From NCBI RefSeq assembly GCF_053078305.1, contig NZ_CP166879.1: a stretch of DNA of 64,000 nt. One strand, given 5' to 3'. The position numbers and the translations under genes were made by a program. Shown here one piece after another: positions 49,610 through 54,339 of the stretch. Within the stretch, counting starts at the first letter, position 1. The number at the start of each line of letters is the position of its first letter. A model generated the notes under the pieces. That model had not been told where the DNA came from, ran no database searches, and worked only from the letters and a program-made list of their open reading frames with translations.

Positions 49610-50829
49610 TTTCCGCCTCCAGCATCCCGCCCACGTTTTGCAGCCAGGGTCCAGCCTGATGAATGAGCTTCTCCGGGTTTATCACCGGTCATACTGTTGC
49701 AGTGCCACAGCGAGCCCCCCCACGTCACCGTATCGCCGGGGTGGTAGGTTTCACCGGCTCTGAACACACCGCGGTAGAGCATCACCGGCAGGGAAAATGT
49801 TTTTTCCGTACGCTGGCCACTGCTCTGCCGGACCACCACAGAGAACAACCGTTCACCCGTCATGCTGACGTCAATATCCGCCACCCCGTCAACCAGGCAT
49901 TCCCATCCCCGCATCCCGTGCGTTTTTTCATACGCCCGCCAGAGTCCGCCCTGGTGTGTGGCATACGTGCCCCGGGGAAAGGATTTTTGATCGTCAATGG
50001 CAGGGAGTATTTCCAGTGCCGTGGCATCACGCCCGTCCTGCGGAGCCGGCAGGGCACTCACCGCATCATTCACCGCCTTCTGCAGAACATCCGGATCATA
50101 GTCACGACCATCACGCGGAACAGGAATATGGCTTACCGCCTCCTTCACCATCTGCTCAAGCATCGGACGCACATCATCCGGGGTGATACTTTTACCGTCT
50201 GCCGGCTGCGGAATATTTGCGACCGCATCATTCACCGCCTTCTGCAGTACTTCCGGATCATAGTCACGACCATCACGCGGAACAGGAATATGGCTTACCG
50301 CCTCCTTCACCATCTGCTCAAGCATCGGACGCACATCATCCGGGGTGAGGCTTTTACCGTCTGCCAGCTGCGGAATATTTGCGACCGCATCATTCACCGC
50401 CTTCTGCAGTACTTCCGGATCGTAGTCACGACCATCACGCGGAACAGGAATATGGCTCACTGCCTCTTTCACCATCTGTTCAAGCATCGGACGCACATCA
50501 TCCGGGGTGATACTTTTACCGTCCGCCGGCTGCGGAATATTTGCGACCGCATCATTCACCGCCTTCTGCAGTACTTCCGGATCGTAGTCACGACCATCTC
50601 GCGGAACAGGGATATGGCTTACCGCCTCCTTCACCATCTGCTCAAGCATCGGACGCACATCATCGCCCGTCACGCACTTCTGTAATACCACAGACAGGGA
50701 AGCCAGTTTTTCTTCAAACGTTTGTGCCTGCGCGGCTATTTTCTCCTCAAATGTGCGCTGTAAATCCGCCAGCACCGCGGAAAATTCTTCACCCAGCGCA
50801 CGGATAATGGACAGTTCACGTTCATTCAT
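49606..50829 (-). CDS. virion-module protein with four tandem 54-aa repeats
   Basis: 407-aa ORF; repeat DDVRPMLEQMVKEAVSHIPVPRDGRDYDPEVLQKAVNDAVANIPQPADGKSITP x4; C-terminus YRGVFRAGETYHPGDTVTWGGSLWHCNSMTG is aromatic-rich. Confidence 0.6.
   Translation of the reverse strand: MNERELSIIRALGEEFSAVLADLQRTFEEKIAAQAQTFEEKLASLSVVLQKCVTGDDVRPMLEQMVKEAVSHIPVPRDGRDYDPEVLQKAVNDAVANIPQPADGKSITPDDVRPMLEQMVKEAVSHIPVPRDGRDYDPEVLQKAVNDAVANIPQLADGKSLTPDDVRPMLEQMVKEAVSHIPVPRDGRDYDPEVLQKAVNDAVANIPQPADGKSITPDDVRPMLEQMVKEAVSHIPVPRDGRDYDPDVLQKAVNDAVSALPAPQDGRDATALEILPAIDDQKSFPRGTYATHQGGLWRAYEKTHGMRGWECLVDGVADIDVSMTGERLFSVVVRQSSGQRTEKTFSLPVMLYRGVFRAGETYHPGDTVTWGGSLWHCNSMTGDKPGEAHSSGWTLAAKRGRDAGGGK
50040..50690. 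repeat. four tandem 162-bp in-frame direct repeats
   Basis: ccgcatcattcaccgccttctgcag recurs at 50061, 50223, 50385, 50547. Confidence 0.9.
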
Positions 50830-52401: not shown

Positions 52402-54339
52402 TCAGCCGCCGGACGCACTGCCGTAGTTCACACCGGTGATCACCGCCACCGCCGCGGTACGGCGACGACGCCAGTTGATCCAGCGCTCCGCACGGATGGC
52501 CACACTGCCTGTCTGGAACATGGAAACCAGCTCCACCGGCGACGGCGTGGTACTGTCGCCGGTCGGCTCAGACTGCATTTCCAGTGATGCCTCGCGGGAC
52601 ATATCCACTGCCACGCCGCCGTCATCCGCCAGATAAATATCCGGGGCATTCACCAGCACCAGCTGGTCACCCACGTACTGGGAGACAATCACCGGCAGCC
52701 CCTGGAAGGAGCCACCCAGCAGGGTCATGTCCGGGTATTCTTTCTGACCCAGCGCATTTTTACGCATGGACAGTGCCAGGGCATTGGTGCTGGACATCAG
52801 CCAGACCGCACCGGTGGGTTGCAGGTTTGCTGCCACAAACTGTCCAAACGCAGCCTCTGCATCCGCATCCGGGTTACCGCTTGATGCCGTGCCCTTCACA
52901 TCATGGGTGATGGACGCCGGGGAGACATCTGCCACCGCCGCTTTTTTCGGGTCCACAAAGTCTGTATCCAGACGCGCCACCACCGCTTCCGCCAGCGCAT
53001 TACGGACCAGTGCATCAGCAGCCGGACTGGAAAAACGGATCAATTCTTCCGTCAGTACCGCAATGGCCGACACCTTCGCATGACTGAAGGTGATGGATTC
53101 AAAATCAAACTTCGTCAGGGGTTTTGCCTTACCCTCACCCACCCAGCCGGCAGCACCGCCGGACACCTGGGCGTGCACACGGATATTGAACGGCACCTGA
53201 CGAAGTGCAGGGATCCCGCCCTGACCAAATCGCCCGATAATGGTCTGAGGACGCAGGTAATCAATAAAGTCCTGTGCGTATTCCTGATATTCAGACAGGC
53301 TGCCTGCCCACTGCGGATCCGTGGTGGTCCCCGCGCCCACTGCCGATTTCAGGACATGATGCAGACGACTGTCATCCGGATACTGACGACGGGCCACTTC
53401 CAGGGCTTCAGAGCGGACACCTTTAGCCGCAGCCAGCGATTTGGCAAAACGTGCGAAACCAATCCCCTTATCCAGTTTCTGCTCCACACGGATCACCGGC
53501 GCAGAAGCCACCGCGGCCACATTCCCGTTACCGGCCTGTTTCACCGGCTGCGCCGTGGCGGCCTTACCGGCTTCCAGTTCACGCAGGCGCTTCAGGTGCG
53601 CATCCACCTGACGGATTTCCGCTGCGGTGTTGTCGTAATGCTCTTCCTCCTCCACATCCAGCGTGCGCCCTTCCTCTGCGGCTTTGGTCATGACCTCCTC
53701 AAGGGAGGCTGCCAGCGCTGCACGCTTGTTTTCAAAACTTTTAATCTGTTCGCCAATATTCATTATGGTCTTTTCCTTATGAAAAACGGTTGTTGACTGT
53801 GCCGCAGCGCCGGCAGAAGATGCGATTTTCACCACCGGTTTCCGGTTGCCGGACGCGGCAGAAAACGGGCGGTCGTAAGATTTAATGGTCCGGATAGTGC
53901 ATTCCGCATTCGCGGGCACGGTGACGGCAGACACCTCCATCAGCTCCCAGCGCAGAAAATGCACTCCGCCTCCGTCCAGAAAGGTGTATTCATGAGGACG
54001 GAAGCCCACGGACAGCCCCCTGACCAGCCCGGTCTTAATGGCCGCCCAGACCTCATCCAGCCGGGCAGCCAGTTGCGACGGCATATCCGGTACGGGTTTC
54101 ACCAGTGTTGCCGTGATTTCCAGCCCTTCGCTGACCCGGCGCACCGTACACTGCCCCACCGGGCGGGAATGGTCATGCTGCCAGAGAAACGGGATCGCAC
54201 TGCCAAACTCCGCGCCCTCCGGCTCCAGGATGTCACCATCCCGATCCGGAGAAGGCGTTGACGCAATCCCGGTGATCACCCGCTCATCCTCACTGAAGGA
54301 TTTCACCGTCAGCAGGGAGCAGGCCCGTTTAAGAGTCAC
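52402..54339 (-). CDS. prohead protease / major capsid protein fusion (HK97 family)
   Basis: 645 aa: N-terminal protease motifs (GIASTPSPDRDGDILEPEGAEF, LWQHDHSRPVG, GLSVGFRP, EVSAVTVPANAECTI), coiled-coil linker, C-terminal capsid-like domain. Confidence 0.8.
   Translation of the reverse strand: MTLKRACSLLTVKSFSEDERVITGIASTPSPDRDGDILEPEGAEFGSAIPFLWQHDHSRPVGQCTVRRVSEGLEITATLVKPVPDMPSQLAARLDEVWAAIKTGLVRGLSVGFRPHEYTFLDGGGVHFLRWELMEVSAVTVPANAECTIRTIKSYDRPFSAASGNRKPVVKIASSAGAAAQSTTVFHKEKTIMNIGEQIKSFENKRAALAASLEEVMTKAAEEGRTLDVEEEEHYDNTAAEIRQVDAHLKRLRELEAGKAATAQPVKQAGNGNVAAVASAPVIRVEQKLDKGIGFARFAKSLAAAKGVRSEALEVARRQYPDDSRLHHVLKSAVGAGTTTDPQWAGSLSEYQEYAQDFIDYLRPQTIIGRFGQGGIPALRQVPFNIRVHAQVSGGAAGWVGEGKAKPLTKFDFESITFSHAKVSAIAVLTEELIRFSSPAADALVRNALAEAVVARLDTDFVDPKKAAVADVSPASITHDVKGTASSGNPDADAEAAFGQFVAANLQPTGAVWLMSSTNALALSMRKNALGQKEYPDMTLLGGSFQGLPVIVSQYVGDQLVLVNAPDIYLADDGGVAVDMSREASLEMQSEPTGDSTTPSPVELVSMFQTGSVAIRAERWINWRRRRTAAVAVITGVNYGSASGG

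Follow-up and report, generated by a model that had tools for sequence, protein, structure and literature searches.

A protease–capsid fusion gene ahead of the portal gene is very probably the ancestral head layout of a widespread siphophage lineage

Within a 64,000-nt window (the whole stretch of DNA analysed here; contig NZ_CP166879.1 of RefSeq assembly GCF_053078305.1), the head genes of a prophage run from the terminase over a protease–capsid fusion to the portal. The prophage is a lambdoid one of E. coli, of the phage 2851/YYZ-2008 (Pankowvirus) type, and the region makes up the head-morphogenesis section of its late operon. Its head order, including the fusion, very probably represents a fixed ancestral layout of a widespread HK97-fold siphophage lineage of Proteobacteria, with no local rearrangement; that the protease–capsid gene precedes the portal gene is already known and ordinary for this lineage. 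Since the layout is normal and has already been annotated in a large phage lineage, it reflects neither an error nor a local rearrangement. It would be wrong to score this order as anomalous or as an annotation mistake, since it is the standard layout, including in many Stx-phage records.

The genes lie on the minus strand in the order HNH endonuclease, TerS, TerL, 645-aa protease–capsid protein, 73-aa ORF, 454-aa portal, 407-aa repeat protein and head–tail connectors (Table 1), with the ORFs and the order of terminase, fusion and portal exactly as an initial annotation had described them. The HNH homologue carries this name in phage 2851 and E. coli genomes, and matches PF01844 in Salmonella and Serratia loci. 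TerS probably starts with the ATG at 56618, which gives 185 aa, while the mechanical ORF extends to a TTG at 56654; PGAP annotates a 558-nt gene in STEC1585.

Table 1 Features of the prophage head module, with positions in the window
Feature	Position	Strand	Remark	Evidence
HNH endonuclease gene	56902..57267	-	upstream of terminase genes	ORF; homologue annotation
TerS (small terminase subunit)	56061..56618	-		Pfam Terminase_2 E 2.8e-8; PHROG 641 E 2.4e-65
TerL (large terminase subunit)	54403..56064	-	553 aa	Pfam, PHROG
Terminator-like hairpin, then T-run	54361..54378	-	between TerL and fusion gene	consensus scan and sequence
Protease–capsid fusion	52402..54339	-	single ORF, 645 aa, 69.0 kDa	Pfam, PHROG, AlphaFold, Foldseek
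Proposed nested in-frame product	52402..53763	-	453 aa, 48.2 kDa	conserved internal ATG and Shine-Dalgarno site
AAGGAGG (52394-52388) and 9-bp GC-rich hairpin (52386-52367)	52367..52394	-	fusion stop codon to small ORF ATG	
Small conserved gene	52136..52357	-	73 aa	PHROG 829 E 3.7e-39
Portal protein, 'split' allele	50826..52190	-	454 aa	Pfam Phage_portal; PHROG 2271 and 12
G5 tract	50841..50845	-	13 nt before portal stop codon	
Post-portal protein	49606..50829	-	407 aa	PHROG 1289 and second half of PHROG 2271
Ad1 head–tail adaptor	49283..49609	-		Pfam Phage_connect_1 E 1.5e-7; PHROG 40 E 1.3e-30
Hc1 head closure protein	48923..49273	-		Pfam Phage_HCP E 1.9e-17

The initial annotation had read protease motifs followed by a capsid-like domain in the ORF after TerL and a portal signature in an ORF further downstream, allowing that the two might have been mis-assigned. 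Profile searches bore out both readings. The 645-aa ORF, opening with a GTG behind an AGGAGG 63 nt downstream of the TerL ORF, matched Peptidase_S78 (PF04586) over residues 48–152 (E 1.8e-8; 35.1 bits, cutoff 21) and Phage_capsid (PF05065) over residues 386–635 (E 6.3e-14; 52.5 bits, cutoff 24.2), and aligned end to end with PHROG 617, 'major head protein' (E 3.6e-261). The 454-aa ORF, of typical portal size, contains both peptides quoted for the portal (AEIVCSVFRVP and TPNEARKRENLPPLAGGD) and covers positions 2–321 of the 321-position Phage_portal profile (PF04860; E 8e-82). TerL matched TerL_ATPase (E 1.6e-11), TerL_nuclease (E 2.6e-10) and PHROG 9 (E 1.2e-146). For all three proteins, the matches are far above chance.

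Because a sequence search of the PDB returned only weak capsid matches for the 645-aa protein (E 0.0017), we used structure prediction and Foldseek for the fusion. The AlphaFold model (mean pLDDT 77.7) and the profile matches delineate an S78 protease (about residues 1–141/156), a disordered linker (142–190), a helical, delta/scaffold-like hairpin (195–262; pLDDT about 90) between linker and capsid fold, and an HK97-fold capsid domain (about 362–645; pLDDT mostly 85–96). Whole-model Foldseek matches were mostly capsid proteins, namely those of Bxb1, D3, HK97 and T5 (E 2.5e-15 to 1e-10), the Bxb1 capsid scoring best. If the identities were exchanged (portal for the 645-aa protein, capsid for the 454-aa protein), gene order would follow the canonical scheme; yet the full-length portal match of the latter, the protease and capsid matches of the former, the agreement of PHROG with both and the HK97 capsid fold modelled for the C-terminal half of the 645-aa protein all contradict this reading. 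We found no support for it and regard its probability as negligible; the mis-assignment considered in the initial annotation is excluded by profiles and predicted structure together.

Residues of the protease domain are conserved as well. BLASTP aligned this region with HK97 gp4 (29% identity over 148 residues, E 4e-9), placing S110 (GLSVGF) opposite S114 (GMSVGF) and H55 one residue off H65; S114 and H65 form the catalytic pair of gp4. Across 43 homologues (36–78% identity), neither H55 nor S110 varies. The N-terminal domain thus combines a match above the curated profile cutoff with the conserved His and Ser of caudovirus prohead serine proteases, and the C-terminal domain combines profile match and fold of an HK97-type major capsid protein. 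The domain identities of the fusion and portal proteins are established and, judged by its sequence, the 645-aa protein annotated as 'major capsid protein' includes the maturation protease as well.

We then compared gene order across relatives. The same order was present in 1,241 of 5,426 complete E. coli genomes—about a quarter of those searched—and in 91 phage records (90–99% identity), including Stx phages 2851 and YYZ-2008, where annotations read, for example, 'major head protein/prohead protease' and 'portal protein'. It recurred in prophages of Salmonella (77% identity) and Serratia (74%), in Pseudomonas phage PAJU2 (48%), whose record names a 'prohead protease fused capsid protein', and in metagenomic relatives of 38–44% identity. 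All 79 IMG/VR loci (38–98% identity) were consistent with it, 63 of them showing TerL, fusion and portal, and in none of the 79 did the portal lie upstream of the fusion. Even an unfused relative followed the scheme, with TerL, protease (224 aa), major capsid protein (MCP; 467 aa), a 131-aa ORF and portal.

That this prophage alone underwent a recent module shuffle, or that assembly or decay produced its order as an artefact, could be suspected from the departure from the HK97 order and from the mosaic make-up of the module, whose neck and tail proteins are 44–74% identical to those of HK97 and its head proteins only 23–29%. However, an order shared by more than 1,200 E. coli genomes, by phages 2851, YYZ-2008 and PAJU2, by other genera, by all 79 IMG/VR relatives down to 38% identity and by the unfused relative speaks against such an event, which we consider very improbable. 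The synteny comparison that the initial annotation had proposed accordingly argues against a local shuffle: its idea of module shuffling holds only in a deep evolutionary sense, relative to HK97, and fails as a rearrangement in this prophage, the order being fixed across the family.

The closest named systems are phage 2851 (Pankowvirus), YYZ-2008, Stx2 phage 1717 and related long-tailed Stx1a/Stx2c phages, with 94–97% DNA identity over a 7.1-kb block and the same genes in the same order, terminase subunits being annotated alongside the head and portal proteins. Phage 2851 differs in carrying a G6 tract and a single annotated portal of 859 aa, where the window shows G5 with separate ORFs (454 and 407 aa), and in lacking the extra 137-aa lipoprotein ORF that precedes the tape-measure gene in the window. 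The PAJU2 head module (gp01–gp09) likewise comprises TerS, TerL, a 667-aa fusion, small ORFs, a portal of 464 aa, a post-portal protein (334 aa) whose ORF shares 4 nt with the portal ORF, Ad1 and Hc1, but belongs to another host genus, has two small ORFs between fusion and portal instead of one and shows no tandem amplification of a 54-aa unit. The window shares with PAJU2, phage 2851, Salmonella and Serratia the complete succession of TerL, protease–MCP fusion, small ORF(s), portal, overlapping post-portal ORF and Ad1, and departs from canonical HK97-like modules, in which the portal lies between TerL and protease/MCP.

HK97 gp1–gp7 form a homologous protein set (TerL/gp2 23% identity, protease domain 29%, portal/gp3 27%, Hc1/gp7 44%), with further matches to a gp10-like protein (74%) and the tail terminator (47%), and the MCP gene of HK97 is followed by a putative terminator, where the window has a hairpin. 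Its order, by contrast, is TerS, TerL, portal, protease, MCP, the last two encoded by separate neighbouring genes, and it has neither a small gene before the portal nor a post-portal protein. Compared by description only, actinobacteriophage fusions resemble the one in the window in uniting protease, scaffold-like region and HK97-fold capsid in one polypeptide, a class said to be frequent among siphoviruses with small genomes. According to a preprint on Arthrobacter phage Giantsbane, structural genes there usually run terminase, portal, protease, scaffold, capsid, an order which, unlike that of the window, puts the portal before protease and capsid. Literature searches for an explicit description of the present gene order, or of the expression of the fusion, returned only statements on actinophage fusions.

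The fusion itself is the prevalent form of this gene, its family numbering 1,184 clusters at 50% identity with E < 1e-30, mostly full-length fusions. Relatives of about 1,090 aa were considered as portal–protease–MCP triple fusions, which would have run counter to the order, but their additional N-terminal stretch proved to be an AAA ATPase or a piece of TerL or portal left by deletions. Could the 645-aa ORF instead be a degenerate, non-functional read-through of two formerly separate genes that lost a stop codon in a decaying prophage? Unfused relatives do break at exactly the junction concerned (loci L010 and L035), and an MCP-type ATG with a Shine-Dalgarno site persists inside the ORF. Nevertheless, the uninterrupted fusion is the majority state, found in most of the best 150 representative clusters (38–54% identity); a stop codon occurs at the junction only in L035; isolated phages 2851 and PAJU2 carry the fusion; the catalytic residues are invariant; and protease–capsid fusions are a recognised class in actinobacteriophages. 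Decay by read-through is therefore very unlikely.

Inside the fusion gene, the ATG at 53763-53761 (M193), preceded by an AAGGA Shine-Dalgarno-like site at 53778-53774, would open a delta-plus-capsid protein without the protease domain. Of 79 IMG/VR homologues, 76 retain the codon, as do 40 of 43 aligned proteins, and in unfused relatives the MCP gene begins at exactly this point (the equivalent of residues 193–196). Shine-Dalgarno-like tetramers stand upstream of 68 of 75 junction ATGs as compared to 11% of 1,087 other internal ATGs, and motif starts cluster at −18 to −7 from the ATG (143, against 0–7 per 6-nt bin elsewhere in the 150-nt linker region), although the loci are related and p-values overstate their independence. 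PAJU2, too, has an internal AGGAGG and ATG at the junction. A conserved internal start codon with a positionally conserved ribosome-binding site suggests a nested, protease-free capsid product, and the persistence of ATG and Shine-Dalgarno site across 38–98% identity argues for selection. We consider it likely, with moderate confidence, that initiation at M193 also yields a 453-aa protease-free capsid precursor.

Alternatively, the fusion may be functional with only the full-length protein made, the internal site being a relic of the fusion event or a by-product of the Lys/Glu/Gly-rich linker. The strong Shine-Dalgarno site of the full-length start fits this possibility, as do the K, E and G linker codons, which naturally hold AGGA/GGAG-type strings; yet such motifs are rare in the same linker outside the −18 to −7 interval, and the ATG is kept although neighbouring residues vary. 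We rate this alternative as less likely than the nested product, though with a substantial probability. Because the full-length start also has a strong Shine-Dalgarno site (AGGAGG), the sequence does not reveal in what ratio the two products would be made.

A nested arrangement of this kind has a precedent in lambda C/Nu3, where a long protease product and a shorter product from an in-frame internal start share a C-terminal assembly module and the nesting sets the protease-to-scaffold ratio. In lambda the shared part is scaffold only, and capsid protein E is encoded by a separate gene. The prophage gene would resemble C/Nu3 in pairing a long protease-bearing with a short in-frame product, given the predicted internal start, and would differ in that the shared part includes the capsid protein itself.

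We infer a possible maturation route. The 645-aa protein would enter the procapsid via its capsid moiety, bringing the protease and the helical delta-like scaffold inside, and the covalent tether would replace the separate targeting of a free protease as with HK97 gp4. Once assembly is complete, the protease may cut off both itself and the delta region, so that roughly 320 aa remain as mature capsid protein. With the internal start in use, as we somewhat favour, only a fraction of subunits would carry the protease, by the same logic as in C/Nu3, and the full-length form would carry the protease to the capsid on a covalent tether. The use of the internal start, the self-cleavage and the N-terminus of the mature protein are all predictions from sequence. 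If the nested start is true, a one-gene capsid/scaffold/protease system has a simple way to set its protease dose.

Two hairpins flank the fusion gene. The one directly upstream of its AGGAGG is weak evidence for a terminator, because the count of such sites in the region does not exceed the shuffled expectation. The hairpin following the fusion gene persists in Salmonella, Serratia and other relatives, where its stem differs in sequence through compensatory changes. In relatives it is often followed by a T-run; the E. coli version has none, and its role as a terminator is therefore uncertain. This hairpin probably attenuates or stabilises the transcript, an effect that would let the portal (12 copies per head) be expressed less than the capsid protein, of which each head takes hundreds. 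The 211-nt 'gap' between the 645-aa and 454-aa ORFs holds the conserved 73-aa gene, which the initial annotation had overlooked and PGAP lists as a hypothetical protein. Its final 55 nt lie within the portal gene. In Salmonella and Serratia the homologues are 55–56 aa long, vary at third codon positions and terminate in TAATG or TGATG, a motif that includes the portal ATG. The small ORFs had no Pfam match.

Alignment to phage 2851 revealed that a sixth G in the G5 tract lets the portal ORF read through into the next ORF, giving the 859-aa 'portal' of that phage. G5 was present in 46 IMG/VR contigs and G6 in 37, and G6 ORFs ending within their contig mostly stayed open for 807–1023 aa. Both alleles are common in E. 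coli prophages. PGAP tags the two-ORF G5 form 'frameshifted', yet this is the form of other genera, whose portals measure 444–452 aa; as its length is that of these intact portals, the 454-aa portal may not be a pseudogene. The downstream repeat protein probably owes its label 'portal protein' to spurious transfer from the fused allele. A programmed −1 frameshift at the portal end (...G AAA AAA TGA), producing a fused protein from the G5 allele, is not proposed, because other genera have ordinary 4–17-nt overlaps and no common slippery site. We are evenly divided on a joint reading, in which the 645-aa gene would be a nested pair—most subunits protease-free, the full-length form a tethered protease carrier—combined with a G5/G6 switch between a free and a portal-fused downstream protein.

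The post-portal gene starts within the portal stop codon (ATGA) and its homologues in PAJU2 (gp07), Salmonella, Serratia and 47 IMG/VR loci occupy the equivalent place. Tandem Repeats Finder detected 3.7 copies of a 162-nt (54-aa) repeat at 50060-50664. The AlphaFold model comprises an N-terminal helix and a beta-rich C-terminal domain with a CBM5/12-like end; this domain gave weak chitin-binding matches in Foldseek (E 0.03–0.3), and Pfam CBM_5_12 stayed below its cutoff. The protein can be described as fibre-like, with collagen-like/CBM-like features.

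Every gene of the head region is encoded on the minus strand of the window. The initial annotation had read the order of this region as terminase, protease-capsid fusion and portal, while raising the possibility that the latter two proteins had been mis-assigned. Pfam and PHROG profile matches bear out the order and, because of the matches obtained for the 645-aa and 454-aa proteins, the original observation is correct and a mis-assignment is excluded. Both peptides proposed as a portal signature are present in the 454-aa ORF, which matches Phage_portal over the whole profile. 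In the 645-aa protein, residues 48-152 match Peptidase_S78 and residues 386-635 match Phage_capsid, both above the Pfam cutoffs, and the protein is covered end to end by PHROG 617 (‘major head protein’).

Features of the head region, listed in the direction of transcription
Feature	Position	Strand	Remarks
HNH endonuclease	56902-57267	minus	First in transcription direction
TerS	56061-56618	minus	Terminase_2 match
TerL	54403-56064	minus	TerL_ATPase and TerL_nuclease matches
Protease-capsid fusion, 645 aa	52402-54339	minus	Peptidase_S78 and Phage_capsid; PHROG 617
Putative internal start	AAGGA 53778-53774; ATG (M193) 53763-53761	minus	10 nt apart; in-frame within the 645-aa ORF
Small gene, 73 aa	52136-52357	minus	PHROG 829, E 3.7e-39
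Portal, 454 aa	50826-52190	minus	Phage_portal, E 8e-82
G5 tract	50841-50845	minus	13 nt ahead of the portal stop codon
Post-portal protein, 407 aa	49606-50829	minus	PHROG 1289
Head-tail adaptor (Ad1), head closure (Hc1), gp10-like protein, tail terminator, major tail protein		minus	In this order after the post-portal ORF

An AlphaFold model of the fusion protein with 43 homologues as input (mean pLDDT 77.7) comprises a beta-rich N-terminal domain (residues 1-141), a disordered linker (142-190), a confident helical hairpin (195-262) and a C-terminal domain (~362-645), for which Foldseek returned the capsid proteins of Bxb1, D3, HK97 and T5 as the closest structures (E 2.5e-15 to 1e-10). None of the 43 aligned homologues deviates at H55 or S110; S110 aligns with S114 of HK97 gp4, and H55 lies at most one residue from gp4 H65, S114 and H65 being the catalytic residues of gp4. 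The protein is a polyprotein composed of protease, delta/scaffold and capsid. It would be incorporated into the procapsid via its capsid domain, so placed that protease and helical region point inward, with the covalent tether taking the place of a free protease's targeting tail; the protease would then cut off the N-terminal ~320-330 residues. As a side observation, two metagenomic proteins of ~1,090 aa (P0123 and P0132), distant relatives from outside the window, carry an AAA ATPase domain ahead of the protease-capsid fusion.

The gene order is genuine, though not new, and is normal for its lineage. Module shuffling, the other explanation initially considered, does not hold as a local accident of this prophage, as synteny comparison with relatives shows. 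Of 5,426 complete E. coli genomes, 1,241 match the 7.1-kb block across 80% or more of its length, usually in several copies per genome, and in the closest matches the late region is of the usual lambdoid type (Q antiterminator, tRNAs, esterase, lysis genes, HNH, terminase, head module, lambda-like tail genes). It is likewise matched over most of its length by 91 phage records, mostly Stx1a, Stx2c and Stx2a phages (2851, YYZ-2008 and 1717 among them); the exact module is thus already annotated in public records, which name a ‘major head protein/prohead protease’ and a ‘portal protein’. Salmonella and Serratia prophages encode orthologues of 74-77% identity in unchanged order, down to the spacer of ~200 nt and the overlap of portal and post-portal ORF by 4 nt, and the order also agrees in metagenomic relatives of 38-44% identity. 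All 79 IMG/VR loci, fetched with the family alignment, are compatible with it—TerL, fusion and portal being complete in 63 and 16 being incomplete on one side—and in none of the 79 does the portal lie upstream of the fusion. Domain content, conserved catalytic residues and conserved order are established for the module.

One unfused relative is arranged as TerL, protease (224 aa), major capsid protein (MCP; 467 aa), a 131-aa ORF and portal; since its portal follows the MCP, the unusual order is independent of the fusion. The family spans 1,184 clusters (50% identity) at E < 1e-30, and full-length fusions of ~630-680 aa form the majority among the best 150 of these. Fusions of protease and capsid have been recognised as a class of their own, ‘common in small-genome siphoviruses’ of actinobacteria. 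Pseudomonas phage PAJU2 encodes a 48% identical protein, annotated as ‘prohead protease fused capsid protein’, in the order TerS, TerL, fusion, two small ORFs, portal, post-portal ORF, Ad1, Hc1, whereas HK97 has TerL, portal, protease, MCP. The TerL, protease and portal of the window share just 23-29% identity with their HK97 counterparts, as opposed to 44-74% between Hc1, the gp10-like protein and the tail terminator and HK97 gp7-gp9. By this disparity in sequence identity, the head module comes from an old lineage of its own and has been joined to neck genes of HK97 type. The mosaic boundary separates 47357-49273 (neck) from 49283-56654 (head module).

At the protease/capsid junction, fused genes retain an ATG exactly where the MCP genes of unfused relatives begin (fusion residues 193-196). 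Of 43 aligned proteins, 40 keep this ATG, as do 76 of the 79 IMG/VR loci, one of which (L035) has a stop codon immediately ahead of it. A Shine-Dalgarno-like tetramer precedes 68 of 75 junction ATGs, compared with 11% of 1,087 other internal ATGs; across 73 non-identical upstream sequences, 143 motif starts fell at -18 to -7, versus 0-7 per 6-nt bin in the rest of the 150-nt linker. Persistence of the ATG and the positionally fixed motif across homologues of 38-98% identity suggests a nested in-frame gene, the simplest reading being that a 453-aa (48-kDa) protease-free capsid precursor would be made besides the 69-kDa full-length form, by the same logic as lambda C/Nu3. The full-length start likewise has a strong Shine-Dalgarno site. 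No earlier description of an internal ribosome-binding site in the fusion gene was found in the literature searched. The full-length start codon is GTG in E. coli and ATG in most other genera, and a terminator-like hairpin with T-run (54361-54378, minus) lies between TerL and the Shine-Dalgarno site of the fusion gene.

The 211-nt ‘gap’ between fusion and portal contains AAGGAGG, a 9-bp GC-rich hairpin and the small gene (52136-52394, minus). Among relatives the stem sequence varies with pairing retained through compensatory changes, often with a T-run behind, and in HK97 the analogous site behind the capsid gene is occupied by a putative terminator. The hairpin could be an attenuator, an mRNA stabiliser or a means of bringing the Shine-Dalgarno sequence nearer the ATG. 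The small genes of Salmonella and Serratia terminate at a TAATG or TGATG, where their stop codon overlaps the start of the portal; E. coli has lost this stop, and its ORF continues for 55 nt inside the portal gene.

Towards its 3' end, the portal gene of phage 2851 has G6 instead of the G5 of the window and, like those of other G6 relatives, continues in frame through the following ORF, which is why its portal is annotated as 859 aa and why the NCBI pipeline (PGAP) marks the G5 form as a ‘frameshifted’ pseudogene. Yet this G5 arrangement is the one seen in other genera, where portals of 444-452 aa overlap a distinct downstream ORF by 4-17 nt, and thousands of sequences in the protein collection represent the 454-aa form. 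Portal pseudogenes are therefore probably over-called by annotation; neither this nor the G-tract polymorphism was found described in the literature searched. Among IMG/VR contigs, 46 have G5 and 37 have G6, the latter restricted to one local haplotype that also occurs with G5. G6 ORFs terminating inside their contig are mostly open for 807-1023 aa, and two more distant relatives each encode a single ORF, of 1,096 and 1,237 aa. That split and fused arrangements both persist suggests that the post-portal protein acts together with the portal.

The post-portal protein consists of an N-terminal helix, a 54-aa unit in 3.7 tandem copies (a 162-nt repeat at 50060-50664, 95% matches) and a C-terminal beta domain, the end of which weakly resembles CBM5/12 chitin-binding and carbohydrate-binding modules. 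Related ORFs of 245, 299, 353, 407, 461 and 515 aa differ in steps of 54 aa, indicating variation in repeat copy number, and some homologues contain collagen-like Gly-X-Y runs. The name ‘portal protein’ of PHROG 1289 was probably transferred from fused alleles; candidate roles for the protein are those of a fibre on head or neck, a decoration protein or an internal protein bound to the portal.

Elsewhere in the window, a 137-aa predicted lipoprotein ORF (46186-46599, minus) lies between tail assembly gene T and the tape-measure gene. The ORF is annotated in one close relative as ‘putative periplasmic lipoprotein’, is absent from this site in phage 2851 and, sharing its position with the HK97 moron gp15, is by analogy probably a moron. 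Outside the head module, GC content drops to 0.43-0.46 at 20001-32000, compared with 0.51-0.60 in the flanking sequence.
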